Position numbers and translations under genes: made by a program
In this document: positions 1,483 to 51,790 of the stretch, in pieces
Numbering within the stretch: position 1 is the first letter of the stretch
Layout of the letters: each line of letters starts with the position of its first letter
Notes under the pieces: generated by a model
The model's database searches: none
Seen by the model: only the letters and a program-made list of their open reading frames with translations
What the model was told of the DNA's origin: nothing
Source: Nitrospirota bacterium
GTDB lineage: Bacteria; Nitrospirota; UBA9217
Direction: 5' to 3'
DNA length: 64,000 nucleotides
NCBI GenBank assembly: GCA_963751455.1
Contig: CAVVUN010000015.1
Span: 64,001-128,000, forward strand

Positions 1483-1581
1483 ACCGCGAAGGCGCGAAGG
1501 ACGCGAAGGAAGGCAAAAGATTCTTCCCGGTTTAAAGCAGGGAATTAAAGATTTTCTTCGCGACCTTCGCGCCTTCGCGGT
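1483..1581. repeat. Periodic inverted-repeat element, CGCGAAGG family
   Basis: Perfect 18-bp IR ACCGCGAAGGCGCGAAGG / CCTTCGCGCCTTCGCGGT; arms built of 8-9-nt repeats. Confidence 0.85.
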
Positions 1582-1648
1582 AAATGGTTTTGCTTTTCAA
1601 GTTTGAGCTGAGTAGTTATGGAAATACAAACATCCAACGGAGGCTCTG

Positions 1649-2869
1649 ATGAGAAACGCATATATCCTGGCCGCCTACCGCACGCCCGGCTGCAAGGCGA
1701 AAAAGGGCAAATTAAAGGATGTCAGGCCCGACGATCTGGCCGCGGCTGCAATCAAAGGGCTGCTGGAGAGAACGGCTATCGACCCTCTGCTGGTGGAGGA
1801 TGTCATCATCGGGTGCGCTTTCCCCGAAGGGGAGCAGGGAATGAACATGGCCCGGATCGCGGCAATGAGGGCCGGGATTCCCTACCAGGTGCCGGCCCAG
1901 ACCGTCAACCGTTTCTGTTCTTCGGGGCTGCAGACTATAGCTTCGGCTGCGGAGCGGATCATGGCCGGGTTTGCCGACTGCATCATTGCGGGCGGCGCAG
2001 AGAGCATGACCATGATCCCGATGGGCGGAAACAAGTACAGCGTCGAATCCTTCTCTGGTCGGCTTCCTGGCCGGAATCATTCACCACATGGGGATTACCG
2101 CCGAGCTGGTGGCGGACAAGTACAAGGTTTCCCGTGAAGACCAGGATGTTTTTGCCGCAGCGAGCCACGTCAAGGCCGCGGCTGCCATCGAGCAGGGCAA
2201 ATTCAAAGAGGAGATCATCCCGGTCGAGGTTGAGAATTGCGCCCTGGTAAACGGCAAGATGAAAAAAGAGAAAGAGGTCGTGAGCATCGATGACGGCGTG
2301 CGGGGGGACACGACCGCCGGCAATCCTCGGAAAACTGAAGCCCGCCTTCAAGAGTGAACGGCACGGTCACGGCCGGCAACTGCGTCCCAGATGACCGACG
2401 GGGCCGCGGCGGCGCTGGTCGTCTCCGAGGAGTTCCTGAAAAAAAGCGGGAAATCACCTCTGGCCCGGTTCGTCTCCTTTGCCGTAAAAGGGGTGCCGCC
2501 CGAGATCATGGGCATCGGCCCGGTTGAGGCGATCCCGGCCGCGCTGCAAGCTGGCGGGGCTGAAGCAGGATGAGATCGGCCTTATCGAACTGAACGAGGC
2601 CTTTGCCGCCCAGTCTCTCGCCTGCATCCGGACCCTCGGGCTCGATCCTGGCCCGGGTCAATGTGAACGGCGGCGCGATCGCCCTGGGGCACCCCCTCGG
2701 ATGCACCGGCGCCAAGCTGACCGCCACCCTTCTCCACGAGATGCAGCGGAGAGGCGTCCGCTACGGCATGGTCTCCATGTGCATCGGCGGCGGCATGGGA
2801 GCGGCGGGGATATTCGAGAAGATGTACGATAAAATCGAATCCCGCGACTTGCAATCCCCCGGCATCTAA
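1649..2869 (+). CDS. fadA: Acetyl-CoA C-acyltransferase (thiolase), frameshifted
   Basis: Motifs [54 protein letters not shown] spread over several frames. Confidence 0.85.
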
Positions 2870-2952
2870 TGCCGGGGGTAATGCGCCGTAGTCACGCTGG
2901 GAAGTCGCGTTGTTCAATGGAGCTTCCTGGCTCCTGCCGGAGGGGGCTTCAC

Positions 2953-2984
2953 TTGCAAATTGTAAATTGCAAAGTGCAAAATTG
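2953..2984. repeat. 7-mer microrepeat (TTGCAAA)n
   Basis: TTGCAAA TTGTAAA TTGCAAA GTGCAAA ATTG just upstream of the fadE RBS. Confidence 0.6.
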
Positions 2985-2995
2985 AGGAGAATACC

Positions 2996-4775
2996 ATGAC
3001 CGCGAAAATATTCAAAGGGGCCGAGTACCTGATTACCGAGGTAACCAAGGACGATGTCTTCACGCCGGAGGACTTCACCGATGAGCAGAAACAGATCGGC
3101 GAGACAACCGATCAGTTCGTGCGGAACGAGGTCGTCCCCCACCGGGAGGAGATCGAGAACCACAAATTCGACGCTGGCCGTCCAGCTGATGAAAGTGCGG
3201 CGAACTGGGGCTTCTCATGATCGATGCCCCCGAGGAGTACGGCGGCCTCGAACTCGACAAGGCGACCAGCATGCTGGCAGCGGAGAAAATCGCCTCAGCC
3301 GGCTCTTTTTCCGTTACCTACTCGGCCCATACCGGCATCGGCACGCTCCCGCTCGTCTATTACGGCACGAAGGAGCAGAAGGAAAAATACCTGGAGAAGA
3401 TCATCAGCGGCGAATGGATCGCCGCCTACTGCCTGACCGAGCCGGACTCCGGCAGCGACGCGCTCGGGGCAAAGGCCACCGCCACCCTTTCCGCCGGACG
3501 GGAAATACTACCTCCTGAACGGCACGAAGCAGTTCATCACGAACGGCAGCTTTGCCAACCTCTATACCATCTTCGCCAAGATCGACAAGGAGCACTTCAC
3601 CGCGTTCCTCGTGGAAAGGAACACCGAGGGGCTGTCCGTCGGGGCCGAGGAGAAAAAGCTCGGGATCAGGGGTTCCTCCACGACGCCAGATCGTCCTCGA
3701 AAATGCCAAGGTGCCCGGTGGAAAACGTGCTCGGCAGATCGGCAAAGGGCACAAGATCGCGTTCAACGTCCTGAACGTCGGCCGCTTCAAGCTGGGCGCC
3801 GGAGTGACCGGGGCCGCCAAGCACGCGCTCGCCGAAGGGATCAAGTACGCCAACTGCAGGAAGCAGTTCGGCGTCCCGATCGCAACCTTCGGCGCGATCA
3901 AGGAGAAGATCGCCGACATGACGGCCGCGGTTTTCGCCTCGGAATCGCTCGTCTATCGCCTGGCGGGCATGATCGACAACAGGCTGGCGACGATTCCCAA
4001 GGACACGCCCAACTACTACGAGGTCTACCAGAAGGGGATCGAGGAGTATGCCATCGAGTGCGCCATCGCCAAGGTGTTCTGCAGCGAGGTCCTTGCCGAC
4101 GTGGTGGACGAGGTCGTGCAGATCTTCGGCGGTTACGGCTTCATCCAGGACTACCCGGCGGAGCGGTTCTACCGCGACGAGCGGATCAACAGGATTTTCG
4201 AGGGGACGAACGAGATCAACCGTCTGCTGATCCCCGGCATGATCCTCGGCGCGGCCATGAAAGGGGAGATCCCGCTCCAGCGCGAGGCGATGAAGGCGAT
4301 CGAGTCGCTGACGTCGCCCTCTCTCGATGAGTCCGGGGACACTGAGGCCTTTGCCGCGGAAAAGGCGCTGCTCGCAAGCCTGAAGAAGATATTCCTGGTG
4401 ATCGCCGGGAGCGGCGTTCAAAAATTCATGGCCGCAATAAAGGACGAGCAGGAGATCCTGATGGCCGTCGCGGACGTCGCCATCAACATCTTCGCCATAG
4501 AGAGTGCGGTCTTGCGCGCCGAAAAGATCCTGCCGACGCTGAGCGAAGCCAGGAAGGGGGCGGTCACGGCAGCGGTGAAGGTCTTTACGTTCAATGCCGC
4601 GGAGCGGACTGCCACGGCCGCGCGCAAGGCCGCCTTCTTCATCGAAGAGGGAGACAACCTGACCATGCTTCTTGCCGGGATCAGGCGCTTTACCAAATAC
4701 GATGCTACGGGTCTTCTCAAGGCGAAGCGGCAGTTGGCCGACGCCGCGATCGAGGCGGAGAAGTATATTTTTTAG
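2996..4775 (+). CDS. fadE: Acyl-CoA dehydrogenase (FadE-like, long C-terminal domain), frameshifted
   Basis: AYCLTEPDSGSDA, RKQFGVPIA, VQIFGGYGFIQDYPAERFYRDERINRIFEGTNEINR across several frames. Confidence 0.85.
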
Positions 4776-4793
4776 CAGAGAGTCAAAGTAGTG

Positions 4794-5014
4794 TCCGCAG
4801 ATTACGCTGATTTCACAGATTAAACGTAACTACTCAGGTAGCCGCTGTAGGGCAAGGCTTTAGCCTTGCATTCGCGCGGTCCGCGCATGTTCCAACGTCG
4901 TAGCAACCCTAAAGGGTTGCCCTACAAATGCTTTAGAAACGGACCTAGTAGTTACGATTAAACCAAATTTGGATTACAGGGGTTTAAATCCGCGCGATTT
5001 GCAAAATCTGCGGA
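4794..5014. repeat. Periodic IR element, CGCAGATT family, interrupted by a MITE
   Basis: Left arm TCCGCAGATTACGCTGATTTCACAGATT, right arm AATCCGCGCGATTTGCAAAATCTGCGGA. Confidence 0.75.
4826..4955. mobile_element. MITE-like element (130 bp) carrying a GTAG-type REP doublet
   Basis: Terminal IR GTAACTACT/AGTAGTTAC, flanking 8-bp direct repeat GATTAAAC (4818-4825, 4956-4963); internal GTAGGGCAAGGCTTTAGCCTTGC and GCAACCCTAAAGGGTTGCCCTAC. Confidence 0.75.
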
Positions 5015-5047
5015 TTAAAATCAGAAGTTTTTTGACAGGAGCACTTC

Positions 5048-7039
5048 ATGGAAGCAACGCGGGAAATTTACTGGAACGTCGGGCACGGCGTCATGCTGCC
5101 CATGTACTCCTTCGCTTTTCTTGCCGGAGCGGCGTTCCTGTACGGCTATTATCGCCGCCTGGCAATATACCGGCAGGGGAAGGCGCTGAACAGGTTTGAC
5201 CGCCTGTTCCTGCGCATCTTCCTGCTTCTGAAAAACATGTTTGCCCAGATACGCGTTCTTCGTGTCCCGGGCCCCGGCATTCTCCATGCCGTCTTTTTCT
5301 GGGGCTTCGGCCTCCTCTTCATCGGCACCCTTCTCATCATGGCCCAGGTCGATTTCACCCAACTCGTGTTCGGGTGGGTCTTCCTCAAAGGGACGTTTTA
5401 CAAGATCTTCTCCCTGGTCCTCGACGCGGCCGGCTTTGCAGCCCTGGTCATGCTCGGGGGGCTTCTCGTGCGCCGCTTCGTCGTCAAGCCCGAAGGGCTG
5501 GAAACCGTTCGCGACGATTATGTCGTGCACGGCCTGCTATTTGCCATCCTGTTGACCGGCTTCGTGGTTGAAGGCGTCCGGATGGCCGCTACGGAGCTGA
5601 GGAACAATCCCGGCCTGGCGATCTTCTCGCCCGTCGGCATGGTTGCCGGAAAAATTTTTCTCGATATGACGCCCGAAGCCTTGTCCCGCACTCATAAAAT
5701 TCTGTGGTGGGTCCACTTTTTCCTGAGCATGGGCTTCATCGTCATCATTCCGTTCACCAAGCTGCGCCATATCTTCACGACCTCCGCCAATTACCTTTTC
5801 ACGGACCTCGCGCCGAAAGGCAGCATCGCCACGATCAACCTGGAGGACGAAGGCGCCCAACAGTTCGGCGCGGCAAAAATCACGGAACTCGCATGGAAGG
5901 ATATTTTCGACGCGGATGCCTGCACCACGTGCAAGCGCTGCCAGGAGCGCTGCCCGGCATACGCAACGGGCAAACCCCTTTCGCCCATGAAAGTGGTAAA
6001 ACAGATAGGCGAGGTCGCGTTCACCAAACCGGAAGCGGGCCTGGTCGAGACTGTGAGCGAGGACGTGCTCTGGGCGTGCACCACCTGTTTCGCCTGCCAG
6101 CATATCTGCCCGGCGAACATCGAGCACGTGAACAAGATCCTCGAGATGCGCAGGAACCGCTCCCTCATGGAGGGGGTGTTCGCGGGAGACGAGGTGCGGA
6201 CCGCAGTGAACGATATCGAGGTGAACAGCAACCCCTTCGGCCTCGCCTACGCTGCCCGGGGGGAATGGGCCGACGGGCTCGACGTGAGGATCATGGAGCA
6301 GGACCGCGATGTCGATATCCTCTACTTCGCGGGCTGTTATGCTTCTTTTGACAAGAGAAACCGGGAAGTGGCCCGGAGCTTTATCAGGATCTGCAGCGCA
6401 GCCGGCATCCGGGTCGGCATACTCGGCAAAGAGGAGAAATGCTGCGGCGAGCCGCCGCGTAAGCTGGGGAACGAGTACCTTTACCAGATGACGGCTGCGC
6501 AGAACATCGAGCGGATCAAGGCGTACGGCGTCAAGAAGATCGTCACGACCTGCCCGCATTGTTTCAATACCCTCGGGAGAGATTACAAGGACCTGGGGCT
6601 CGATATCGATGTCGAGCACTACACTACTTTTATCAACGGACTTATCAATAACAACAGGCTTAAACTAAAACCCGCGACCTTTGAGTTTACCTACCACGAC
6701 TCCTGCTACCTGGGTCGGTACATGGACATAATCGCAGAGCCGCGGGCTGTGCTCAAGGCCGCCGGCGGCCGGATCGCGGAGATGAAAAAGTCCGGGTACG
6801 AGAGCTTCTGCTGCGGCGGGGGCGGCGGCAGGATCCTGGCCGAGGAGAAGCTCGGGACGAGGATCAACGCGGCGCGGGTAACCATGGCCGTGTCAACGGG
6901 CGCTTCCTTGCTTGTCTCCAACTGCCCGTTCTGCCTCACGATGCTCGAGGATGGAATAAAAACAAGTGAGGCCGATGGAAAGCTGAAGGTGGTTGACCTG
7001 GCTGAAATTGTGGCGGCAAGGATTGTAACTAAAACGTAA
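5048..7039 (+). CDS. fadF: Membrane-anchored Fe-S oxidoreductase (FadF / heterodisulfide reductase-like; ETF-linked)
   Basis: N-terminal TM helices, two CxxCxxCxxxCP motifs, two CCG domains (KCCGE, FCCGGGGG); adjacent to etfBA. Confidence 0.85.
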   Translation: MEATREIYWNVGHGVMLPMYSFAFLAGAAFLYGYYRRLAIYRQGKALNRFDRLFLRIFLLLKNMFAQIRVLRVPGPGILHAVFFWGFGLLFIGTLLIMAQVDFTQLVFGWVFLKGTFYKIFSLVLDAAGFAALVMLGGLLVRRFVVKPEGLETVRDDYVVHGLLFAILLTGFVVEGVRMAATELRNNPGLAIFSPVGMVAGKIFLDMTPEALSRTHKILWWVHFFLSMGFIVIIPFTKLRHIFTTSANYLFTDLAPKGSIATINLEDEGAQQFGAAKITELAWKDIFDADACTTCKRCQERCPAYATGKPLSPMKVVKQIGEVAFTKPEAGLVETVSEDVLWACTTCFACQHICPANIEHVNKILEMRRNRSLMEGVFAGDEVRTAVNDIEVNSNPFGLAYAARGEWADGLDVRIMEQDRDVDILYFAGCYASFDKRNREVARSFIRICSAAGIRVGILGKEEKCCGEPPRKLGNEYLYQMTAAQNIERIKAYGVKKIVTTCPHCFNTLGRDYKDLGLDIDVEHYTTFINGLINNNRLKLKPATFEFTYHDSCYLGRYMDIIAEPRAVLKAAGGRIAEMKKSGYESFCCGGGGGRILAEEKLGTRINAARVTMAVSTGASLLVSNCPFCLTMLEDGIKTSEADGKLKVVDLAEIVAARIVTKT

Positions 7040-7066
7040 CTGCTGACATCAAACAAAAAGAATTTT

Positions 7067-7163
7067 ACCGCGAAGGCGCGAAGGCCGCTAAGAAAATCTT
7101 TAATTCTTGTTTTAAACCAGGAGAATCTTTTGCCTTCCTTCGCGTTCCTCGCGCCTTTGCGGT
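7067..7163. repeat. Periodic IR element, inverted copy of 1483-1581
   Basis: Its reverse complement aligns with 1483-1581 across both arms and the loop (GAAGGCAAAAGATTCT..GGTTTAAA..GAATTAAAGATTTTCTT). Confidence 0.85.
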
Positions 7164-7203
7164 TCAATGATTTTGTTTCCCATTTATCCGGTTAGGAGGA
7201 GAA

Positions 7204-7980: not shown

Positions 7981-8034
7981 TAATTCGTTATTTGAATTTG
8001 GTAAATGTGATGCATTCGTAAAAAGTCAAAATCT

Positions 8035-8156
8035 ACCACAGAGACACAGCCTGCACTCGCGCAGTGCACTCGTAGTCGCTGGCCGCAGGCGGAGACACAG
8101 AGAAAATCAAATTGGAAATTAAGCATTTTTCTCCGTGACCTCTGTGCCTCTGTGGT
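8035..8156. repeat. Periodic IR element, CACAGAGA family, containing a 43-bp insert
   Basis: ACCACAGAGACAC[insert]GGAGACACAGAG ... CTCCGTGACCTCTGTGCCTCTGTGGT. Confidence 0.75.
8048..8090. mobile_element. Small AGCCTGC...GCAGGC insertion element, copy 1
   Basis: Shares both ends with 33420-33554 and 37004-37042; removing it restores the host repeat period. Confidence 0.7.
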
Positions 8157-8230
8157 TAAACCCTATTTTTAGATTCTGTAATTTGATTTTTTGGAGATTT
8201 GATTTCTTTGTCTGATTTGGAGGATCGAAT

Positions 8231-9148: not shown

Positions 9149-9592
9149 TCCGGTCATTGCCGTGCTCTTATCCGGCGCCAGGTGCCCACCTGCCCACGGG
9201 CCCCGCCGATCTGTTCATTCGCCCCCTCGCCGTTCAAGCCGATATACGCATACGTCCGGGGATGATTGCCTCAGTACTCGAAAACAAGGTTGCAGCTTCG
9301 ATTACCGGGCAGGCAAGCTGTTCGACCACGAGCACCCGGAAGAGGACATCAAAAAAGCCCTCGCAAAACTTCCGAAAATATAAAAATTTTATCTGAAAGT
9401 GCTCCCTGCAGCTGCTGGCCGGGAGCACTCTTTTTTCGCCTCTCCCGCTGCTGCATCATGTCTTCTTTCGAACCGCCAAAGTAATATCAACCTCTTCCAT
9501 GCAGGCCCCCGGCGCCTTTGGTCGGATGATGTTACCCGCAGCATCCGATCGTCAGCCATGAAGGAGAAGGTAGCACGAAGCTCCTCCCTTAT

Positions 9593-9621
9593 TTGACAAT
9601 TTTTTCGGATCGATTGATAAT
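9593..9621 (+). promoter_or_regulatory. Putative sigma70 promoter
   Basis: TTGACA-17nt-GATAAT upstream of the AGGAGG RBS of 9647. Confidence 0.55.
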
Positions 9622-22771: not shown

Positions 22772-23131
22772 ATGGAATCGAAACTGAAAGTATATCAGAT
22801 GAACCTGGAAGGCGAAATCGACGCGGCCAAGATGGCGGAGATAGACCGCGTGATAGGCCAGCTGATCAAGGGCGAGATGTACGGCCTCATCCTCAACTTC
22901 GAGACCGTCGAGCACATCCAGTTCACTATTCTTCCGATGCTCGTTGAGGAAAGGAAGCGGCTGCAGTCCTTCGGAGGCGACATACGGCTTTCCGGCATGT
23001 CGGATTATATCAAGAACATCTTCAGGACGACCGGCGTGCTCGAACAATTTCAGGTATTCGACAAGGCTCAGCAGGCAGTCAAGAGCTTCGGGGTTTCCAA
23101 GGCTGCGACCAACCTGCCGCTGGGACTGTAG
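22772..23131 (+). CDS. STAS-domain protein (anti-sigma factor antagonist-like)
   Basis: LEGEID, LILNFETVEHI, GGDIRLSGMSDYIKNIFRTTG. Confidence 0.8.
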   Translation: MESKLKVYQMNLEGEIDAAKMAEIDRVIGQLIKGEMYGLILNFETVEHIQFTILPMLVEERKRLQSFGGDIRLSGMSDYIKNIFRTTGVLEQFQVFDKAQQAVKSFGVSKAATNLPLGL

Positions 23132-23229
23132 CAATTGCAGATTGCGGAATGCGGATTGAGAAACGAAATCATTCTCTGAGGTTTATGTATGGAACCTGAT
23201 CCGAAATCCGAAATCCGAAATCCGCAATT
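23132..23229. repeat. 7-mer periodic IR element overlapping the rsmH start
   Basis: CAATTGCAGATTGCGGAATGCGGATTG ... ATCCGAAATCCGAAATCCGAAATCCGCAATT. Confidence 0.75.
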
Positions 23230-24154
23230 AGAACACGTTCCGGTTCTTCTGAGCGAGGCTGTTGACCTGCTTTCGCCTGGGCCGGGCGGTGTTTACGTGG
23301 ATGGTACGGTCGGCGCGGGCGGCCACGCCGCCGAAATACTAAAACGTTCTGCACCCGACGGCATCGTTATCGCTCTTGACCGCGATTCAGAGGCGGTCGA
23401 ACGAAGTAAAAAAAAGCTTGCTCCTTTCGGCGGCCGTGCTCTGGTGCAGCAGGCCAATTACCGGGATATCCCCGCGGTTCTTTCTGCCCTGGGGTATGAT
23501 CGTGTGGACGGCGTTCTGCTTGATCTCGGCGTATCCTGGTTTCACGTCAAATCTCCGGACCGCGGATTCAGCTTCATGCTTGAAGGGCCGCTCGATATGC
23601 GTATGGATAGAAATATCACGCAGACGGCCGCAGATCTCGTAAATACGCTCCCTGTGTATGATCTCGCGAGAATTATTCGTGAGTACGGGGAAGAGAGAAG
23701 AGCAGGCGCAATAGCAAAGGCTATAGAAAAAGCGAGGGCCCGGGAGCCTATTACAAGCACCGTCCGGCTTGCAGAAATCATTGCAAGTGTATTTCCTCCG
23801 TACCCTCCCCGGCGCATGCATCCCGCCACGCTCACATTCCAGGCCTTGCGAATTGCTATTAACGATGAAATCGAGGCCCTTCGCGAGGGACTCCGGGACA
23901 TAATTCCTGCTCTTAAAACAGGCGGCCGGATTGCGGTCATCTCGTTCCACTCACTTGAAGACCGTGTTGTAAAACAGTCGTTCGCTTTCGGGGCAAAGGG
24001 CTGCATCTGCCCGCCGAAAATGCCGATGTGCAGCTGCGGTAAAAAACCGGAGTTAAGGATTCTTACCAAGAGGCCGATTGTGGCCGGGGCTGAGGAAGTG
24101 AACAGAAATGTCGCAGCCAGGAGCGCGAAACTAAGAGCTGCCGAAAGGCTTTAG
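23189..24154 (+). CDS. rsmH: 16S rRNA m4C1402 methyltransferase RsmH
   Basis: HVPVLL, DGTVGAGGHA, LLDLGVS, PLDMRMD, SFHSLEDR, ARSAKLR. Confidence 0.97.
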   Translation: MEPDPKSEIRNPQLEHVPVLLSEAVDLLSPGPGGVYVDGTVGAGGHAAEILKRSAPDGIVIALDRDSEAVERSKKKLAPFGGRALVQQANYRDIPAVLSALGYDRVDGVLLDLGVSWFHVKSPDRGFSFMLEGPLDMRMDRNITQTAADLVNTLPVYDLARIIREYGEERRAGAIAKAIEKARAREPITSTVRLAEIIASVFPPYPPRRMHPATLTFQALRIAINDEIEALREGLRDIIPALKTGGRIAVISFHSLEDRVVKQSFAFGAKGCICPPKMPMCSCGKKPELRILTKRPIVAGAEEVNRNVAARSAKLRAAERL

Positions 24155-24611: not shown

Positions 24612-24727
24612 CGATGGACCAGGGACCAAGGAGGACGGACGAAAAGACAGGGGATGAGAGACAAGGGACAAGATTTATGAAGGACTTTCGTCCAATCATC
24701 TTGGCGAGTCCCGATTTTCATCGGGAT
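24612..24727. repeat. 7-mer GGAC-type microrepeat plus TCCCGATTTTCATCGGGA palindrome
   Basis: GGACCAG GGACCAA GGA GGAC GGACGAA ... GGGACAAG in the ftsL-ftsI spacer. Confidence 0.5.
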
Positions 24728-24770
24728 AAATTCCGCGGACGCTCCTTATGGCAGGGGAGATGGCTGACAG

Positions 24771-26501: not shown

Positions 26502-28048
26502 AACTAGGTGATTTACTATGTACACTCAAGAAACCGCCGACAGCTTCGGCCGCGGACCGGGAGGTGCTCGATATCACCCATGATTCACGAAAGGTTAAAC
26601 CCGGTTCTCTCTTCGTGGCCGTGCGAGGTTTCAACTCGGACGGCCATCTATTTGTTCCTCAGGCGGTAGAGCGGGGAGCGGTCGGCGTCGTGGCCGAGCA
26701 TGAGAGCGGCGCGGCTGAATCGGTCCCCGAGATCATCGTTGAAGATTCGCGTCGGGCGCTTGCGCTTCTCGCAAACCGGTTCTACGGCTATCCCTCGACG
26801 AAGCTTTCGCTCATCGGCGTTACCGGCACAAACGGCAAGACCACCACAACGTACCTCGTAAAATCGATCGTGCAGGCGGCCGGGCGGCTTGCGGGGCTGA
26901 TCGGGACCATCGATTACCGCATCGGGGACACGGTGTACCCGTCCCCCAATACCACGCCCGAGTCGCTGGAGCTTCAGCGTTTTTTGTCCGAGGCGGTCGG
27001 GCTTGGAGCCGAGTACTGCGTGATGGAAGTTTCGTCGCATGCCCTGGAACTCGGCAGAACGCGGGGATGTGAATTCGCGGTTGCCGCTTTTACGAACCTG
27101 ACCCAGGACCATCTGGATTTTCACGGGACAATGGACGCCTATTTCGGTTCAAAGCTCCGCCTTTTTTCAGGGCTTTCGTCGAAGGGCCGGGCTGTAGTCA
27201 ATCTCGATGACAAACGGGCGGCGGAGATCATCAACGCAACCCCGGCTTCCGTCCTCACCACCGGAATGACCAGCCGCGCCGATGTGCATCCGGACGGAGG
27301 CATTCAGCATGGCATCGAAGGCCTTCGTTTTAACGTGTCGACACCCGTCGGCATGCTGTCGGTGCAATCGCCGCTGGTGGGCCGGCATAATGTTTACAAC
27401 ATGCTGACCGCAATCGGGATCGGCATTGCCCTCGGTTTTCCGGCGGACGCGATCGCGCTCGGCATCAGGGAAATGAAGGCCGTTCCCGGCCGGATGGAAA
27501 AAGTGGACGAGGGTCAGGGTTTCGGGGTCGTGGTGGACTATGCACATACCGAAGACGCGCTCCAGCGGCTGCTTCAGGCAGCCCGCGAGATCACCGCTTC
27601 CAGAATCATCACGGTCTTCGGCTGCGGCGGCGACCGTGACCGCACAAAGCGTCCGAAAATGGGCGCCGCCGCGCTGAACGGGAGCGACATTGTCATTGTG
27701 ACGTCCGACAATCCGAGGTCCGAGGACGCGATGAGCATTATCCGGGAAATCGAGGTCGGTATGGCCAGCGATATGAAAGCGGCGTCAACCGGTCATGCAG
27801 CGAAGCATCGTGAGAAACCGTATTTTGTTATCGCTGACCGTCGCAGCGCCATAGCGGAGGCTGTTCGCATCGCGAAACCAGGGGATGTGGTGGTGCTTGC
27901 GGGAAAAGGTCATGAGGATTACCAGATAATCGGGAGCTTAAAGCTCCATTTTGACGACCGGGAAGTGGCGCGGGAAGAAATACGGAGACGCACTGCGGAA
28001 TGCGGAGTTCCCTCAACCGGTCCCTCTCCCGGGAGGGAGAGGGGCTAG
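26498..28048 (+). CDS. murE: UDP-MurNAc-tripeptide synthetase MurE
   Basis: GVTGTNGKTT, MEVSSH, DYAHT, FGCGGDRD, DNPR (meso-DAP type), AGKGHE. Confidence 0.96.
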   Translation: MKLGDLLCTLKKPPTASAADREVLDITHDSRKVKPGSLFVAVRGFNSDGHLFVPQAVERGAVGVVAEHESGAAESVPEIIVEDSRRALALLANRFYGYPSTKLSLIGVTGTNGKTTTTYLVKSIVQAAGRLAGLIGTIDYRIGDTVYPSPNTTPESLELQRFLSEAVGLGAEYCVMEVSSHALELGRTRGCEFAVAAFTNLTQDHLDFHGTMDAYFGSKLRLFSGLSSKGRAVVNLDDKRAAEIINATPASVLTTGMTSRADVHPDGGIQHGIEGLRFNVSTPVGMLSVQSPLVGRHNVYNMLTAIGIGIALGFPADAIALGIREMKAVPGRMEKVDEGQGFGVVVDYAHTEDALQRLLQAAREITASRIITVFGCGGDRDRTKRPKMGAAALNGSDIVIVTSDNPRSEDAMSIIREIEVGMASDMKAASTGHAAKHREKPYFVIADRRSAIAEAVRIAKPGDVVVLAGKGHEDYQIIGSLKLHFDDREVAREEIRRRTAECGVPSTGPSPGRERG

Positions 28049-28199
28049 TGGACACTCTGCACTCGCGTAGACACACTCGTCATCGCTGGGTGCAGGCAAG
28101 GATAATTCTATCTCGGATTGCGCATTGCGGAGTAGAACCTGGAAAGGCGGCATCGAAGCCTTTTCATAATCCGCATTCCGAAATTCGAAATCCGAAATT
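27993..28199. repeat. Composite repeat region: 7-mer IR arms, CCCTCTCCC/GGGAGAGGG palindrome, degenerate GCAGGC insert
   Basis: CTGCGGAATGCGGAGT; CCCTCTCCCGGGAGGGAGAGGG; CTGCACTCGCG...CGCTGGGTGCAGGC (28054-28097); CGGATTGCGCATTGCGGAGT...ATCCGCATTCCGAAATTCGAAATCCGAAATT. Confidence 0.65.
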
Positions 28200-28202
28200 G
28201 AT

Positions 28203-30660: not shown

Positions 30661-30787
30661 CCGCAGATTGCGCAGATTTAACGCAGATTAAGAAAATAGA
30701 GAAAACGTCTAAATGGCAGAATTTAATAACGGCCTAATTAAAAAAAATTCTTGAAATTAAAATCTGTGAAATCTGCGTAATCTGCGG
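30661..30787. repeat. Periodic IR element, CGCAGATT family
   Basis: CCGCAGATTGCGCAGATTTAACGCAGATT ... AATCTGTGAAATCTGCGTAATCTGCGG. Confidence 0.8.
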
Positions 30788-32176: not shown

Positions 32177-32261
32177 TTCGTTTGTTTGGTTTGTCTGGTT
32201 AATTTGGTTTGTCGGGTTAGAACCAAACAAACTAAACAAGCACAATAACCAAGTAAACCGA
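32177..32261. repeat. 9-mer periodic IR element (TTGGTTTGT / AACCAAACA)
   Basis: TTCGTTTGT TTGGTTTGT CTGGTTAAT TTGGTTTGT ... AACCAAACA AACTAAACA ... AACCGAA. Confidence 0.75.
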
Positions 32262-33394: not shown

Positions 33395-33419
33395 AAAGAT
33401 ATTGCGGAGTGCGGATTGC

Positions 33420-33554
33420 AGCCTGCACTCGCGCGAGCACTGCTTAGACTCATTGTCGTACCATCTCGCTGAGTAAGGCTTAGACCCTTTGTCGACCATC
33501 GCACTGAGAAACGTGTGACGGGAATCAAGGACCTCATAAGCGCTGGCCGCAGGC
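33420..33554. mobile_element. AGCCTGC...GCAGGC insertion element, long 135-bp copy, inside a 7-mer array
   Basis: GCGGATTGC|AGCCTGCACTCGCGC...CATAAGCGCTGGCCGCAGGC|GGATTGCGG; internal ~36-nt tandem duplication. Confidence 0.7.
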
Positions 33555-33602
33555 GGATTGCGGAATGAAAAACGAATTCAAAGAAGCAAAATCGGAAACA
33601 TC

Positions 33603-34679
33603 ATGAAGATTATTATCGCCGCCGGAGGAACGGGAGGGCATTTGTACCCGGGAATCGCCATAGCGCGCGAACTGCTTCGGGCACCGGGAAATGAAGTGCT
33701 TTTCGTGGGCACTCAGCAGGGAATCGAGGCAAAGGTGCTGCCTAAGGAGGCGCTTCCGGTTCGTTTCATAACGGTCGGAAAGATCAAGGGCATGAACATC
33801 GGATCGATAACAAAGACGCTGGTTACGCTGCCGCGAAGCATTGTTCAGTCGGTCAGCCTGCTGCGCGAAACACGGCCGGACGCGGTCATAGGCGTCGGCG
33901 GCTACTCGTCGGGTCCCGTAGCGCTTGCGGCGCTGCTGCGGAGAACACCGCTTTTCATTGTTGAGCCCAATTCATATGCCGGGCTCGCAAACAGGGTGCT
34001 GGGGAAGGTCGCGAACAGGATAATCCTCTGCTTTCCGGGCACTGACCGTCATAATTTTTTTCCCAAAAAGAAGACGATAACCATGGGGCCGCTGGTACGA
34101 CAAGGAATCGAGCTCGGCAACCGCGATAAAGCGTTCAAGGACTTCGACCTCGATCCCGGGAAGTTTACAGTCTTTATCATGGGAGGTAGCGGAGGGGCCC
34201 ATGCCATTAACCTGGCGATGAAGCAGGCGGCCGCGCTCCTGACGGACCGCCCGGATCTGCAGGTCCTTCACCAGACCGGAGAAATGGATGCGGCCGATAT
34301 AAGGGCCGGGTACCGCACGGCACGCGTGAAGGCCACAGTGCTTCCCTTCATCCACGATATGGCGGGCGCGTATGCGGCAGCGGACCTCGTCGTCTCCCGG
34401 TCGGGCGCCACCACAGTGGCGGAGCTCGCGGTCTGCGGCAAGCGTGCGGTGCTTGTTCCCTATCCTTTTGCAGCGGACAATCATCAGGAATATAATGCGA
34501 GGACCCTTGCGGCGAGGGGCGCGGCCGAAGTAATTGTACAAAAGGAGCTGACTCCGAAAAGACTGGCGGAATTGATTCTGAAATATGCGGGGGCCCGTGC
34601 GGAAGCTGCGGCTCCGCAGGCAAATACAGCAGCGAAGGAGATCGCAGAGATCTGCAAGAACTATGTTCAAGAAAATTAA
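33603..34679 (+). CDS. murG: MurG glycosyltransferase
   Basis: [30 protein letters not shown]. Confidence 0.96.
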
Positions 34680-36988: not shown

Positions 36989-37003
36989 CTGATTGCGGAT
37001 TGC

Positions 37004-37042
37004 AGCCTGCACTCGCGCTTCGCATAAGCGCTGGCCGCAGGC
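37004..37042. mobile_element. AGCCTGC...GCAGGC insertion element, 39-bp copy, inside a 7-mer array
   Basis: GATTGCGGATTGC|AGCCTGCACTCGCGCTTCGCATAAGCGCTGGCCGCAGGC|GGAATGTGGATTGCGGAATG. Confidence 0.72.
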
Positions 37043-37117
37043 GGAATGTGGATTGCGGAATGTTTCGGACCGACGAACCGCAGTTCGTCTTCACCCAACT
37101 CAGCTTAAAGGAGCAGT

Positions 37118-38041: not shown

Positions 38042-38097
38042 GCCGACCATGTCGGCGTTAATAGATAACGGCAACACGGTTGCCTTGGTCCAAAAAC

Positions 38098-38937: not shown

Positions 38938-39080
38938 CGGGTTAGCGTTGATTGGCAACGAGGCCCGTATCGTATTGAATGGCAACGGTAACGTGATCTG
39001 CCTGACACGAACGACGTGACCGTCTGACGGAACGGGCATCGTGACCGTCACCGATTTGATGTGAGAACCGGAGGTGCGAC

Positions 39081-40315: not shown

Positions 40316-40416
40316 ATTGAAAAATGCAAATTGAAAATTGGAAATTGCAAAGCGAAGTGTTGAAAACATACAGCAAAGCGCGCGATTTCCAATCAACAAT
40401 TTCCAATGTTTTTGCA
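40316..40416. repeat. 7-mer periodic IR element (AAATTG-type)
   Basis: ATTGAAAAATGCAAATTGAAAATTGGAAATTGCAAAG ... TTTCCAATCAACAATTTCCAAT. Confidence 0.65.
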
Positions 40417-44070: not shown

Positions 44071-44128
44071 TAGGCCGGTCACTGTGCAGATGGACCAGAA
44101 GTTATTCTCTTTTTGAAAGGAAGGACGC

Positions 44129-45037: not shown

Positions 45038-45080
45038 TAAGCGAATGTCACTCCGCACGTCATTGAAGTCAAAAGCGGTC

Positions 45081-45168
45081 ACCGCGAAGGCGCTAAGGTC
45101 GCAAAGGGAAAACCTTAATTCGAATTTTTAGATCAATAAAAACTTCGCGTCCTTTGCGGCTTAGCGGT
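45081..45168. repeat. Periodic IR element, CGCGAAGG family
   Basis: ACCGCGAAGGCGCTAAGGTCGCAAAG ... CTTCGCGTCCTTTGCGGCTTAGCGGT. Confidence 0.78.
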
Positions 45169-45266
45169 TCAAGATTTTGGCTTTACCTCTTGGTCTGAGC
45201 CTGCCTTGGTCATACTTAACCCCTAAATTGCTTTGCGCAACTCTTTCCAGAATAGTATAATCACGT

Positions 45267-46989
45267 ATGTCTCGGAAACTGAAAGAAAAAGCTGATGCCG
45301 TGCTTGCTACCGAGCGCGGTACTATTCATAAAGCGCGCGGGGCCGACGTCAGCATCGCGCTTGCCTACCCGAATACCTATCACGTCGGCATGTCGAATCT
45401 CGGAGTCCATCAGATATACTCGGTTCTGAACGCCCGGCCGGACACGGTCTGCGAACGGGTTTTTTTGCCTGATGATGAAGATATCGAGGAATATCGAAAG
45501 ACGGGTACAAAACTCTTCACGCTTGAGAGCAAGCGGCCCGTAAAGGACTTTGACGTACTCGCCTTTTCGGTCTCTTTTGAACAGGATTACCTGAATATTC
45601 TTCAGATACTCGACCTCTCCGGCATTCCCATCGATAAAAAAGACAGGACAGAGGACGATCCGCTTGTTATGCTCGGGGGCATCTGCTCCTTCTTTAACCC
45701 GGAGCCGCTCGCGGACTTCTTCGACGTGATTCTTGTCGGCGAGGGTGAAGAGATGGCTGGAGAATTCGTCGATGTTTATAGAAAGACCGACTCAAAAAAC
45801 CGGGAGGACGTGCTGCGGGCTGCAAGCATTGTTCCTGGTGTTTATGTTCCGGATTTTTATGATGTCATCTACGAAGGAAATATAATCAGAGCGGAAGAAA
45901 CGTGAAGCTTCGGCCCCTGACAGCATCACAAAACGCACTGTCAAGGACTTCAACCGGACGCCGGCGGCCAGCGTGATCCTGACTCCTGACACCGAATTCA
46001 GCGACATGTATCTTTCTGAGATAACGCGCGGATGCGGACGGCATTGCCGTTTTTGCATGGCAGGATACATCTATCTTCCTCCCCGGAATCTGAATATTGA
46101 GAGAGCAAAAGAACAAGCGGGAAAGGCAGACGATATTTGCGGGAAAATCGGCCTTGTTGGCGCGGCGCTGTCGGATTATCCAGACATAGTCGAGATGTGC
46201 GCCGCGATAGAGGGAGGGGTTTCAGTTTCGTCGCTCAGGGCGGATTCCGTGGGCGAGGCGTTGATTGACCGGCTGGCAAAGAGCGGTCATAAGACCATCT
46301 CCATAGCGCCGGAGGCGGGATCGGAACGGCTCAGGAAAGTGATCAACAAGGGAGTAACCGAGGAAGATATTCTTCGGGCTGCGGACATGATCTTCAGACA
46401 CGGCATACCAAACTTGAAGCTCTATTTCATTCTGGGCCTGCCCACCGAGACGCAGGAAGACGTAGAGGCAATCGGTTCGCTGGCCCGTAAAGTTAGGGAA
46501 GTTCAGCTCAAGCATGCAAGAGCCGCAGGGAAGATCGGCAGGATTACGCTCTCGGTTAATTCATTCGTTCCAAAGCCGTTTACGCCGTTCCAGTGGGAGC
46601 CCATGGAAGCCGTGGATCTTCTCAACAGGAAGATGCGCTTCCTCAAAAAGCAGGTCCGGAACATAGGCAATATGAATCTGATCCACGATCTTCCAAAATG
46701 GGCATATATCCAGGCGCTGCTTTCCCGCGGCGACCGCCGCGTTGGAGCGCTGATCCGCGTTGCTTTCGAGAAGCAAGGTGACTGGAAAGCAGCCGCTCGC
46801 GAGTTGGGCCTTGACATGGACGCTTACGTTCTGAGACGCCGCGATTTCAGCGAGGCGCTGCCCTGGGATTTTATTGACATCGGTGTGAGGAAAGATTATC
46901 TTAGAAACGAATACGAGCGGGCGCTGGAAGGCAAATTCACGCCGGTCTGCAGAGTAGGCTCGTGCAAGACGTGCGGAGTGTGTAAATAA
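45267..46989 (+). CDS. Radical SAM protein (B12-binding-like N-terminus), one frameshift at ~45890
   Basis: YPNTYHVGMSNLG...CERVF; EITRGCGRHCRFC; APEAGSERLR; FVPKPFTPFQW. Confidence 0.85.
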
Positions 46990-47031
46990 AATGGTTCTTA
47001 ATGAGCCCGATTTTGATAGATTCGTAAATGA

Positions 47032-47121
47032 TCTCTGTCTCACACAAAGACACGAAGGCACGAAGAAAAAATGAATTTCAGGTCTGTTCTCTGTGGCTTT
47101 GTGACTTCGTGTGAAAACAGA
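47032..47121. repeat. Periodic IR element, CACGAAG family
   Basis: TCTGTCTCACACAAAGACACGAAGGCACGAAG ... CTTTGTGACTTCGTGTGAAAACAGA. Confidence 0.78.
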
Positions 47122-47172
47122 TTTCTTAAGATTTTTTATCAAAATTGAAATCAGCATCGATGGGTCATATAC

Positions 47173-47928: not shown

Positions 47929-47937
47929 AGCCTCTTT

Positions 47938-48038
47938 TCTCGCAAAGGCGCAATGGTCGCAAAGAAAAGCAAAAGAAATGGATCTTTATAAAATATCTTT
48001 AAAAGTCTTTCTTGACGTTCTTTGCGAGCTTTGCGAGA
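47938..48038. repeat. Periodic IR element, CGCAAAG family
   Basis: TCTCGCAAAGGCGCAATGGTCGCAAAG ... CTTTGCGAGCTTTGCGAGA. Confidence 0.72.
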
Positions 48039-48049
48039 GATGAATTTTT

Positions 48050-48763
48050 ATGTCGATAGCGGACAACCTCAAGACGGTAACAGACAGGATCGCATCGGCA
48101 GCCAGGCGCTCAGGCCGGGACCCCTCGTCCGTGAAGCTGGTTGTGGTTACCAAGACTGTTGATGTTGACAGGATCCGCGAGGCAGTAGCAGCAGGTGGCA
48201 TGCTCCTGGGTGAAAACCGTGTCCAGGAAGCAAAGGACAAGATCGAAAAACTCGGACGGCTTGCCTCCTGGCACCTGATCGGGCATCTCCAGACGAACAA
48301 GGCAAAGTATGCGGTAAAGCTCTTTGACGTGATTCATTCCGTTGACAATATCGGCCTGGCTAAGGAAATAGACGTGCAAGCGGCCAGGATAAACAAGGTC
48401 CAGGATGTCCTGATCGAGATAAGCATTGCCGGAGAGGCGAGTAAGGCGGGGGTGGCGGCAGACCAGGCGCTGTACCTGGTGGCAGAAGCCGCAAAACTGA
48501 AGCACATTTCTATCAAGGGCTTAATGACCATGCCGCCCTTTTCGGACAACCCGGAAAACTCGCGTCCGTATTTCAGGAAATTGAAAGAATTGACAAGGCA
48601 GATCGGGAAAGAGAATCTCCCGGGTGTTTCCATGGATGAGCTTTCAATGGGAATGAGCGGCGATTTCGAGGTCGCCATAGAAGAAGGGGCGACCTTGGTG
48701 CGCGTGGGTACGGCGATATTTGGGGAGAGGTCAGGACATATGCAAAGTGAAAATTGCATCTAA
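48050..48763 (+). CDS. yggS: PLP homeostasis protein YggS
   Basis: VVVTK, GENRVQE, WHLIGHLQTNK, LSMGMSGDF, VRVGTAIFG. Confidence 0.96.
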   Translation: MSIADNLKTVTDRIASAARRSGRDPSSVKLVVVTKTVDVDRIREAVAAGGMLLGENRVQEAKDKIEKLGRLASWHLIGHLQTNKAKYAVKLFDVIHSVDNIGLAKEIDVQAARINKVQDVLIEISIAGEASKAGVAADQALYLVAEAAKLKHISIKGLMTMPPFSDNPENSRPYFRKLKELTRQIGKENLPGVSMDELSMGMSGDFEVAIEEGATLVRVGTAIFGERSGHMQSENCI

Positions 48764-48907
48764 AACCGTCTCTGTCTCACACAAAGACACTAAGGCACGA
48801 AGGGATGCCAGAAACAAATTATTTTCTTTGTGTCTTCGTGGCTCCGTGTGAATACCATATTTTGATTCATCTTTTCAATTTGCACTTTGCGATCTGCTAT
48901 TTGCAAT
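48740..48907. repeat. 7-mer IR element with a nested CACGAAG-family element (48769-48851)
   Basis: Outer ATGCAAAGTGAAAATTGCA / TTTTCAATTTGCACTTTGC..TTTGCAAT; inner element starts almost identically to 47032. Confidence 0.7.
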
Positions 48908-48931
48908 AAAAATGATCTCCGTGGAGGACCT

Positions 48932-49744: not shown

Positions 49745-49746
49745 GA

Positions 49747-50293
49747 AACCGACAGACAAGCGACGTGAAGCGACGGAACCGACGTGTAACAGAGAGGCGA
49801 GCATTGGGGAACATTCAGAGCCATAAAGATCTGCACGTATGGCAGGATGCAATGGATGGAGCCATGGAGATTTATGCCATTACCAAAGCATTTCCCCCTG
49901 ACGAGAAGTATTCTCTTGTGGACCAAATCCGGAGATCGTCTCGGTCGGTTGCTGCGAATCTTGCCGAAGCGTGGAGAAAGCGAAGATATGAGGCAGCATT
50001 TAAGAGCAAGTTGAATGATGCAGAAGCAGAAGCGTCCGAAACGCAAACATGGATAGAAGTAGCGCTTCGGTGTTCTTATATTGACAAGCAAACTGCAGAT
50101 AAACTGGATCAGAAATACGAGCATATTCTGACGAGGTTAGTTTCCATGAGTCGGGATGTCGGGAATTGGACGCTGTAATGAAAATCGACAAGTATCGAGT
50201 TGAAGCGACGAAGATTCGACGTAAAGGCGACTGGCTCGCGGCATGTCGTTGTCAGGTCGGTGCAAGTCATCTCTAGTCGATTTTACGTCGGCT
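49747..50293. repeat. CGAC/GTCG periodic IR element enclosing the four-helix-bundle gene
   Basis: CGAC at 49750, 49761, 49771, 49780; CGAC/CGAG at 50186, 50196, 50206, 50217, 50228; GTCG/GTCA at 50245, 50256, 50266, 50276, 50287. Confidence 0.7.
49804..50178 (+). CDS. Four-helix-bundle protein (TIGR02436 / 23S rRNA IVP family, Avd-like)
   Basis: KDLHVWQ.AM...IY.ITK.FP.DEKYSL.DQIRRSSRSVAANLAEA...EASETQTW; TTG start inferred from GAGAGG. Confidence 0.9.
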   Translation: MGNIQSHKDLHVWQDAMDGAMEIYAITKAFPPDEKYSLVDQIRRSSRSVAANLAEAWRKRRYEAAFKSKLNDAEAEASETQTWIEVALRCSYIDKQTADKLDQKYEHILTRLVSMSRDVGNWTL

Positions 50294-50310
50294 TTACAAA
50301 GGGAGGATCA

Positions 50311-50610
50311 ATGTTTGTCTTCGGAAATATAATTTTGGGAATTGCAAAGGTTCTTGATGTTGCATTGAACATCTATCTTTGGGTCATTATTATTCGGGCC
50401 CTTATCTCATGGGTGAATCCTGATCAATTTAATCCCATCGTGCAGTTTCTTCAGCGGTCAACTGAACCGGTGCTTCGTCCGATCAGAAAGCTTGCGCCGC
50501 CTTATAAGGTCGGAATAGATCTATCACCGCTGATCGCGATTCTTATCATTTACTTTTTACAATATGCAGTCGTGAACACACTGTATCGTATTGGCCGCTC
50601 GATGGGGTAG
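50311..50610 (+). CDS. yggT: YggT family membrane protein
   Basis: ALISWVNPD..NPIV.FL...TEPVL.PIR...IDLSPLI. Confidence 0.93.
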   Translation: MFVFGNIILGIAKVLDVALNIYLWVIIIRALISWVNPDQFNPIVQFLQRSTEPVLRPIRKLAPPYKVGIDLSPLIAILIIYFLQYAVVNTLYRIGRSMG

Positions 50611-50667
50611 GCCAGGCATAATGGCCGCAAAGGGGCACAAAAAACGCCAGAAAAAGACGAACGGTAG

Positions 50668-50801
50668 TTGGACGCAGATAAAGGCGGAAAAGGCGGATCA
50701 AACGGATTATTGATGAAACAAGTATCCACCTGATTTTTCATAAGGAAAGTTTGATTTGTTATCTGTTTCTATCCGATGTTAACAGATTCTTCCGCGTCCA
50801 A
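50668..50801. repeat. 9-mer periodic IR element (GCGGA/GCAGA type)
   Basis: TTGGACGCAGATAAAGGCGGAAAAGGCGGATCAAACGGAT ... ATCTGTTTCTATCCG...TTCCGCGTCCAA. Confidence 0.6.
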
Positions 50802-50860
50802 ATGCTCTCGATAGGTTTTTTGAGGCTCAAAATAATTGGTTTTTTGCGGGAGGCATAAAT

Positions 50861-51340
50861 ATGAACATTACTCCGCTCGATATACAGCAGAAGCGGTTTC
50901 ATATGGGCTTTCGAGGTTACGAACGAAGCGAGGTGGATTCCTTTCTCGATATGGTACGCGAGGAAATGGAGGCTCTGCTTCGCGAAGTCACGGAGCTGCG
51001 CGAGTTCCAGCAGACCTATGAAACACGAATGCAAGAGCTGAACCAGCGGGAAGAGACGGTCAAGAACACAATGATCATGACTCAAAAGCTTGCGGAAGAC
51101 CTCAAGGAAAACGCTCGCAAGGAAGCGGCTCTGATCGTAAAAGATTCGGAACTCCGCAGCCAGCACATAACAGGCAACGCGCAGCAGGAGAAGGTGAAGC
51201 TGGAGTTCGAGATACAGGAGCTGAAGCGGCGGAAGCATCATTTTCTGCAGGACATCAAAAAAGTCATCGAGATGCACCTTGAGATGACGAAGTTTGAGGA
51301 AGGCGGCGATGAGACCCGCGAAGAAACCGCCAAGGGGTAA
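50861..51340 (+). CDS. divIVA: DivIVA domain protein
   Basis: ITPLDIQQKRF...FRGY...EVDSFL followed by a coiled coil. Confidence 0.92.
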   Translation: MNITPLDIQQKRFHMGFRGYERSEVDSFLDMVREEMEALLREVTELREFQQTYETRMQELNQREETVKNTMIMTQKLAEDLKENARKEAALIVKDSELRSQHITGNAQQEKVKLEFEIQELKRRKHHFLQDIKKVIEMHLEMTKFEEGGDETREETAKG

Positions 51341-51620
51341 GGCAAAAGCGGCAGCAGCCACTTTGTCGGTACGCATACAGCCGCGGGCGTCGAAGAACGA
51401 GGTCGTCAGCAGGGAAGGCGGCGTCAAGATCAGGCTCACTGCTCCGCCCGTTGACGGCGCGGCAAACGAGGCTTTGGTCCGGTTTTTGGCTGATACTCTT
51501 TGCGTATCAAAATCCCAGGTCGAGATCGTCTCGGGGCACACGGCGAGGGACAAAGTTGTCAAAATCAGCGGTATCGACAAGACCGCTGCGGAAACGATCT
51601 TGAATAAGGCAGCGAAATAG
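51309..51620 (+). CDS. DUF167 / YggU family protein
   Basis: VRIQPRAS, APPVDGAAN, VSGHTARDK. Confidence 0.9.
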   Translation: MRPAKKPPRGKAKAAAATLSVRIQPRASKNEVVSREGGVKIRLTAPPVDGAANEALVRFLADTLCVSKSQVEIVSGHTARDKVVKISGIDKTAAETILNKAAK

Positions 51621-51676
51621 GTTATTATAAATTGTATTTTACAATGGCTATGAGCAGAGGGCTAGAAAGAATGTTC

Positions 51677-51790
51677 ACCGCTAAGAACGCAAAGGACGCG
51701 AAGGAAGGCAAAGGGCTTTGATCCTGGGTTTTGAAACCCAAAGAAAAGATTCTGATTCTGGTTTCCTGGCGACCTTCGCGCCTTCGCGGT
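51677..51790. repeat. Periodic IR element, CGCGAAGG family
   Basis: ACCGCTAAGAACGCAAAGGACGCGAAGGAAGGCAAA ... GCGACCTTCGCGCCTTCGCGGT; right arm matches 1560-1581. Confidence 0.8.

Follow-up and report, generated by a model that had tools for sequence, protein, structure and literature searches.

Periodic inverted-repeat elements at core-operon junctions of a Nitrospirota bacterium: probable selfish cassettes lacking their gene and carried by natural transformation

In Neisseria meningitidis, the tiny nuclease SsnA is flanked by its own hairpins, the NTS repeats, and cuts transforming single strands (PMC11893778; this and the other papers are cited from the parts of them at hand). Minimal mobile elements and the NIME/dRS3 arrays of Neisseria (PMC3787668, PMC1797815), switched intergenic regions (PMC5890482), the repetitive extragenic palindromes (REPs) of REP/RAYT systems with the CGTC repeats (PMC3733652), the open-reading-frame-bearing 23S rRNA intervening sequence of Coxiella (PMC4990558), and the TAACTGA (PMC4679880) and GGGAATC (PMC4692102) repeats are further described systems close to the elements studied here. 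These are periodic-arm inverted repeats lying between genes in a 64,000-nucleotide stretch of Nitrospirota DNA (contig CAVVUN010000015.1, positions 64,001 to 128,000; hereafter the window). They share their arms with two gene families, GxxExxY (PF13366, a PD-(D/E)XK fold) and a four-helix bundle (PF05635/TIGR02436). PF13366 is listed as of unknown function (PMC3424549), the portions consulted on PF05635 give no known function beyond Avd relatives (PMC10053308, PMC4990558), and those on the TAACTGA intergenic heptamers describe them without a transfer mechanism (PMC4679880).

As in Ssn/NTS, a tiny single-domain gene, here for a predicted nuclease, is flanked by its own hairpin repeats, hundreds of gene-less copies lie between genes, repeat variants match protein variants, and there is a tie, here a correlative one, to natural transformation. 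In contrast to SsnA, a GIY-YIG enzyme, the cargo here is PF13366 or PF05635; instead of a 28-nt hairpin, arms made of periodic word arrays enclose a long AT-rich loop, and the sites are core-operon junctions, replaced wholesale. Like minimal mobile elements and NIME/dRS3 arrays, whose inverted repeat-spacer-inverted repeat units are dynamic at syntenic sites, the junctions show variable content between conserved flanking genes of closest relatives, exchanged, judging from pattern only (synonymous changes in adjoining codons; alleles of a distant genus), by recombination in those genes. Unlike them, the cassettes are mostly gene-less and 100–150 nt long, have exchange tracts that end within 5–20 nt of the gene ends, and are linked to two particular families of small genes. 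Switched intergenic regions likewise present non-homologous alleles at one locus that are incongruent with gene trees, but our elements lie inside operons, not at promoters; their alleles fall into defined repeat classes, and the rate of turnover depends on lineage gene content. With REP/RAYT and CGTC repeats they share a small dedicated enzyme gene flanked and far outnumbered by repeats; they differ in having far longer periodic stems, a partner that is not a Y1 transposase, and no GTAG/CGTC tag with a 5–13-bp stem and 2–20-nt loop, the tag occurring only in a nested doublet at 4847–4925. The Coxiella intervening sequence holds a PF05635 gene within terminal inverted repeats with tandem heptamers; ours lie between protein genes instead of in an rRNA helix, carry no RNA-pairing signature and have many gene-less copies. 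TAACTGA and GGGAATC also form heptamer arrays, often in inverted pairs, that lie between co-oriented genes and within essential operons, but regulatory or structural roles were proposed for them, and no partner gene is named in the parts of those papers at hand. In the literature within reach (subscription papers mostly fell outside it, and supplements were excluded) we found no link of GxxExxY or TIGR02436 genes to periodic inverted arms. We file the cassettes as a repeat-plus-small-enzyme kind, not as a member of Ssn, REP/RAYT, MITEs (miniature inverted-repeat transposable elements) or intervening sequences. Our best reading, by analogy, is that they may work like Ssn/NTS combined with minimal mobile elements, with different proteins.

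On the sequence evidence, the hairpins are likely to be selfish cassettes that lack their gene and spread through natural transformation, because their arms match those of the cargo genes, they fill short gaps between co-transcribed core genes, and they are replaced as 100–150-nt blocks.

The window contains a fad/etf cluster, a toxin-antitoxin islet, the dcw cluster, a pgeF-yggS-proC-yggT-divIVA-yggU run and tmRNA. An earlier note on this DNA had listed 19 elements as inverted repeats of one diversified family. The words it named are present at all 19 starts, and significant inverted repeats were detected at 15 (arm-against-arm alignment, 60 shuffles each, p 0.016–0.033). At the other four (2953, 24612, 33401 and 36990) only one periodic arm is present, accompanied in three cases by a small nested palindrome. 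Selfish, diversified elements fit our results; a single family does not, since several word families are present, with no fewer than six word classes and, in addition, nested REP-like palindromes. The note was right that most non-overlapping dcw junctions are occupied (9/12 of those longer than 30 bp carry arms) and that the toxin-antitoxin islet and the region past the tmRNA gene are free of elements, no junction there being flagged by a strict periodicity test. It overlooked a filled cassette (49745–50310), a hairpin (38958–39042) and a MITE with an 8-bp target duplication inside the 4794 element. No window spacer has a full-length copy above 90% identity. The features are as follows (C-numbers are contigs of the window's assembly).

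49745..50310, forward strand: filled cassette between proC and yggT, with a CGAC-word left arm (49745–49803), a four-helix-bundle gene and a CGAC-word right region (50179–50300)
49804..50178, forward strand: four-helix-bundle gene (TIGR02436/PF05635), 124 aa; 2GSC match, E 2e-12, and weak bAvd-like match
1483..1581: CGCGAAG-word hairpin with GxxExxY-type arms; MITE-A-like end at 1608; 87% identity with the 7067 copy
2953..2990, forward strand: single AAATTGC 7-mer arm, partnerless
4794..5020: CGCAGAT-word hairpin whose loop contains a later insertion
4826..4955: MITE-A-type insertion with terminal inverted repeat GTAACTACTCAG, exact 8-bp target duplication and a GTAG-tagged REP-like doublet (4847–4925)
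7051..7178: CGCGAAG-word hairpin; transposon-like ends at 7036 and 7184
8035..8156: CACAGAG-word hairpin; its left arm encloses a small palindrome (8050)
23133..23229: GCGGATT 7-mer hairpin at the STAS-rsmH junction; right arm inside the rsmH open frame
24612..24745, forward strand: GGACNAG single arm and small palindrome, ftsL-ftsI
27993..28201: GCGGART 7-mer hairpin with nested palindromes at 28022 and 28055; overlaps the murE end
30661..30787: CGCAGAT-word hairpin, mraY-murD; the same junction is swapped among conspecific strains of relatives
32177..32260: AACCAAACA-word hairpin of opposite polarity, murD-ftsW; the word also flanks a four-helix-bundle gene at C9:376678
33401..33615, forward strand: GCGGATT single arm, ftsW-murG, split by a nested palindromic insert
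36990..37065, forward strand: GCGGATT single arm, murB-ddl, split by a nested palindrome
38958..39042: ACGGTAAC/GTGACCGT-word hairpin, ftsQ-ftsA; words like these occur upstream of a broken four-helix-bundle gene, C9:369518
40316..40410: AAATTG 7-mer hairpin, ftsA-ftsZ
45066..45183: CGCGAAG/CGCAAAG-word hairpin, after cysM
47022..47131: CACGAAG-word hairpin, before pgeF
47933..48043: CGCAAAG-word hairpin, pgeF-yggS
48741..48884: CACGAAG-word hairpin within an AAATTGC 7-mer hairpin, yggS-proC
50668..50801: CGCAGAT/GGCGGA-word hairpin, yggT-divIVA
51672..51795: CGCGAAG-word hairpin, before the tmRNA gene
51845..52199: tmRNA gene

Some arms extend into open frames, at the rsmH start (23189–23231) and the murE end (27993–28048), adding element-derived codons. 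A small palindromic insert, of which a 12-mer has 85 copies in the assembly, recurs within arms of other hairpins (8050, 28055, 33422 and 37006).

The window's assembly (G000) comprises 5.72 Mb in 15 contigs with many frameshifts; we called its genes with our own hexamer model, so gene borders are approximate. Intergenic periodic segments at periods 7, 8, 9 and 10 number 219, 60, 169 and 118, against 0–7 per period in two dinucleotide shuffles (pooled, 566 against 5 and 13). The 8–10-nt word class reduces to one unit, CRCNRAK, and hairpins built from it number 230, against none in two shuffles. Their polarity is fixed (230 against 13 reversed), their loops are 67% A+T, and none lies within a called gene. 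Occupancy of 45–300-nt gaps is highest between co-directional genes (342/1417, compared with 25/169 convergent, 11/154 divergent and 6/1740 shuffled) and climbs with native-like codon usage of the flanking genes, from 34/374 to 138/372.

The link to TIGR02436 and GxxExxY genes that the earlier note had raised is borne out, as the same arms bracket both families. The assembly has 9 TIGR02436 and 10 GxxExxY matches, several broken; among the four-helix-bundle genes, C2:320604-321052 is interrupted by a MITE-A copy and C9:369518 by an insertion sequence. GxxExxY genes sit within CRCNRAK arms, with words identical to those of the window's empty hairpins, and four-helix-bundle genes within 7-mer, CGAC or AACCAAACA arms. 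Across many phyla, significant inverted arms flank 62 of the 71 four-helix-bundle loci with full flanks (from 80 relatives of the window protein). Within the family they flank 35 of 40 loci, these 40 having been taken from the TIGR02436 matches in family genomes, and the GCGGATT, AAATTGC and GGACGAG words of the window are among them. For GxxExxY (30 loci from G000 and relatives), the strict word pattern occurs on both sides at 19 of the 28 with full flanks. The arm word tracks the GxxExxY protein clade, and proteins from one junction cluster together at 4/5 sites. In a set of 41 genomes, at least five hairpin-pattern matches were present in 19/21 with GxxExxY and in 2/20 without. Neighbours of four-helix-bundle cassettes are co-oriented in 43/63 by a rough frame test.

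GxxExxY is predicted to be a Cas4/lambda-exonuclease-like nuclease with intact catalytic residues: in a structural model of pLDDT 94, the predicted catalytic residues E27, E77 and K79 are invariant and D67 almost so, and a Foldseek search of the model matched LHK exonuclease, Cas4 and Hjc (best E 4e-4, TM ~0.5). A PDB sequence search with GxxExxY was empty, and an Atlas search returned only family members. The window four-helix-bundle protein matches the 2GSC pentamer and, weakly, bAvd. Phage carriage of GxxExxY was rejected, a two-pattern scan of viral contigs having yielded a single locus.

Comparison of occupancy among relatives (G-numbers denote genomes, L-numbers metagenome contigs or loci) revealed that junction content is replaced. 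Each dcw junction bears differing word classes or nothing across relatives. At proC-yggT the cassette is filled in G000, G014 and L131, at least six other classes occur elsewhere, and only 9 bp separate the genes in G003; L131 has the same yggS-proC-cassette-yggT order as G000 at 72–81% protein identity. Where relatives hold GxxExxY at a junction, G000 has an empty or collapsed site or one of another class. The strains L116 and L117 (0.1% coding divergence) differ at 3 sites in ~3 kb outside mraY-murD, and that junction is fully replaced, from 5 nt before the stop to ~12 nt into murD. Between G009 and L115 (0.7%), the ftsW-murG junction has been replaced; the opening codons of murG carry synonymous changes, and mraY-murD is ~20–25% diverged. 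Replaced tracts thus measure 100–150 nt in strains 99.3–99.9% identical in the flanking genes, and reach a few bases into both of them. No swap was observed in three other near-identical pairs (G014/L066, L075/L076 and L053/G045). Alleles are also shared between distant genera at the same site: L117's mraY-murD is ~79% identical over 78 nt to that of L062, loop and ribosome site included, at a murD distance of 0.62, which points to import from another species. In a distant group (L085, L094, L097, L072 and L077), word arrays and small palindromes lie in frame within murD and murE loops and vary between 94–99% identical strains, near substitution clusters.

Turnover and intact hairpins are confined to cargo-bearing lineages. 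Close pairs split into frozen and swapping lineages. As predicted before the search, 7 frozen genomes contain no GxxExxY and no TIGR02436, and the 9 genomes predicted to be active have 2–10 GxxExxY each, 8/9 with 3–7 TIGR02436. Non-homologous junctions were found in 28/47 comparisons where cargo is present versus 4/64 where it is absent; below 5% divergence, 7/15 were swapped with cargo versus 0/17 in two cargo-free pairs. Intact hairpins occupy 69/243 dcw junctions in genomes with GxxExxY and 3/143 in those without. Hairpins, then, decay in cargo-free lineages. The earlier note's suggestion of a diversified selfish family tolerated in polycistronic mRNA is supported.

GxxExxY is also co-lost with the competence gene comEC, a correlation that extends to dprA. 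In 64 family genomes, which represent about three independent losses rather than 64 tests, both GxxExxY and comEC are present in 46, both absent in 10, and discordant in 4 + 4 (agreement in 56). Of the comEC-less genomes, the 5 that are at least 90% complete all lack GxxExxY, and the 4 that have it are all below 90% completeness. Both comEC and dprA, which go together, are missing from two of three frozen lineages; turnover was observed only where the cargo families and the uptake genes are both retained. Loss of comEC (and of intact dprA where tested) appears independent in the genera g3 and g4 and a subclade of g19, all of one family, and includes 96–100% complete genomes; these lineages are apparent natural competence knock-outs. 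Cargo and comEC were lost together in g3, a g19 subclade and G003.

Such joint loss could also be explained passively. Ordinary transformation might do all the swapping of intergenic regions, the cargo genes being passengers kept by re-import and the words being left over from binding sites of those genes, such as autoregulatory ones. Switching of intergenic regions has been described where no dedicated enzyme is involved (PMC5890482, in the part at hand), and hundreds of empty hairpins coexist with intact GxxExxY genes in G000, so these proteins are not potent cutters of their cognate sites. This passive account fits poorly with G024 and G077, which keep comEC and dprA, lack cargo, are nearly hairpin-free and show 0/8 swaps at 4.2% divergence; G071 and G074, with similar coding patchiness, show 5/9 swaps at 4.6%. 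Nor does it sit easily with the link between word and protein clade, or with the excess of substitutions in the last 30 nt before swapped junctions (233 versus 78 expected; 188 versus 113 in cargo-free pairs). We consider the passive account unlikely, though it is the strongest competitor to selfish cassettes.

Several points weigh against the selfish-cassette reading itself. The GxxExxY status of G019, G024, G009 and G007 was already known before the prediction; the pairs share genomes and are kin, with swapping pairs more divergent on average; and the cargo status of L-number contigs was taken from their place in the murD tree. Since loss of cargo and of competence coincides in two of the three frozen lineages, G024/G077 is the only pair in favour of the cargo doing more than transformation alone. 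Searching the dcw junctions of the fetched loci with our own profiles, built from one four-helix-bundle clade and three further seeds and from five seeds for GxxExxY, detected no filled cassette. A sibling-segment control within G000 was not significant (2/6 versus 4/24), with a strict classifier that missed degenerate hairpins. Very short tracts can arise when an ordinary import is later trimmed within the species, and metagenome chimeras are possible for the two conspecific pairs L116/L117 and G009/L115. Finally, among analogues that have been tested the closest is SsnA, and it reduces rather than increases the integration of DNA bearing NTS (PMC11893778, in the part at hand); the direction of the cargo effect on integration may differ here. 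Separately, a model in which dcw hairpins are relics formed in situ was rejected on the lack of filled cassettes in those loci.

The earlier note's other suggestion, host RNA structures that adjust mRNA processing, stability or translation ratios within operons, draws some support from the strong preference for co-directional gaps between native genes, from the STAS-rsmH 7-mer hairpin, which overlaps the rsmH start and is recognisable by eye in 11/13 loci, and from RNase III cleavage of the Coxiella intervening sequence with its heptamers and PF05635 gene (PMC4990558, in the part at hand). However, the hairpins lack the marks of structured regulatory RNA: an Rfam search matched only the tmRNA, no structure is conserved, and there is no G·U bias on the transcribed strand. 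Sense-strand G·U:A·C mismatches were 290:267 and 134:122, in total 424:389, whereas rRNA run through the same alignment routine, with shorter windows and a lower score cut-off, gave 42:20 (Fisher p 0.018 versus hairpins); rRNA replaced an earlier terminator control that was too small (10:7). An arm pairs with its own partner at 21–22/38 positions and with a foreign partner at 20–21/38, barely fewer; what is retained is thus the word rather than the pairing. At the same site, relatives carry unrelated classes or nothing, and hairpins decay after cargo loss. Tuning of processing or stoichiometry by such structures is accordingly very improbable.

Ordinary MITE and REP families moved by insertion-sequence transposases could account for part of the pattern. 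Some hairpins do hitch-hike in MITEs: ~52 MITE-A and ~54 MITE-B copies in G000 (~105 in all; both families recent) bear them, with exact target duplications of 8 bp in 24/32 pairs for MITE-A and 5 bp in 49/53 for MITE-B. GTAG and CGTC palindromes are nested in some spacers, and G000 has 33 Y1 transposase (PF01797) matches. Yet MITEs cover only 50/230 CRCNRAK hairpins. For the other 180, which lack the GTAG/CGTC tag, target duplications were at null level (k 5–8), and loops are mostly unique (close sibling in 24/176); orthologous junctions show replacement, not insertion. We found no autonomous insertion sequence whose ends match those of MITE-A or MITE-B. As a full explanation, these families are refuted by junction replacement and the 180 duplication-free hairpins, and we give such an account the least credence of all; they remain a route to new sites for a subset.

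Other features of the DNA were recorded. A STAS (anti-sigma antagonist) gene at 22772–23131 lies between mraZ and rsmH and is kept there at 74–87% identity in the family loci examined. The fadB, thiolase, acyl-CoA dehydrogenase and radical SAM genes are frameshift-split (408–4775 and 45267–46989), probably through read errors. Open reading frames of 2049 aa (53918–60067) and 795 aa (60329–62716; no NCBIfam or Pfam match) follow, and the 56-bp ddl-ftsQ spacer (38042–38097) is a different, dispersed, non-periodic repeat with 15 near full-length matches. In G000, contigs C1/C7, C10/C15, C12/C2 and C15/C3 share long duplicated segments at 77–96% identity that become near-identical toward contig ends, so a sibling lineage is mixed into the assembly. 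The assembly also contains six reverse-transcriptase matches and two highly abundant repeats (~165 and ~87 copies), which we take to resemble CRISPR repeats.

If the hairpins are gene-less cassettes, transformation would bring in one strand of a relative's DNA, which would pair through conserved gene ends so that its junction displaces the resident one, the route of minimal mobile elements. Filled and empty forms would interconvert at one site, and new sites would be seeded by MITEs and chance insertions. Replacement via gene ends would explain the preference for conserved co-directional core junctions and the absence from islets, as well as the missing target duplications and the decay without competence. 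A position after the stop and before the ribosome site would leave operons intact and a filled cassette readable from the host promoter. In the least certain step, cargo proteins may bind their own word arrays on the incoming single strand and trim or favour that strand; such trimming would yield very short tracts and hold the words under selection. This action is suggested by the word-clade match, the frozen competent pair G024/G077 and the SsnA/NTS analogy. In its boldest form, we tentatively propose, with more doubt than confidence, that GxxExxY nucleases and four-helix-bundle pentamers both act on single-stranded DNA in a word-specific manner and subvert natural transformation, marking and trimming incoming DNA at arm arrays so that the junction cassette homes into another species' orthologous operon junction with a few bases co-converted. 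If true, each core-operon gap would be a slot contested by rival selfish families, and a single mechanism would account for two orphan protein families of very large size as well as for the bacterial 7–10-mer repeats that have long lacked an explanation.

PF13366, PF05635 and intergenic heptamer repeats are now tied, by correlation, to natural transformation, and lineages that lost the cargo genes offer a direct test as natural knock-outs, with frozen junctions and decaying hairpins. Should the proteins be word-specific single-strand nucleases or aids to short-patch recombination, they would provide a large new set of enzyme-target pairs, and selfish DNA would be rewriting the ribosome-binding regions of essential operons on strain time scales.

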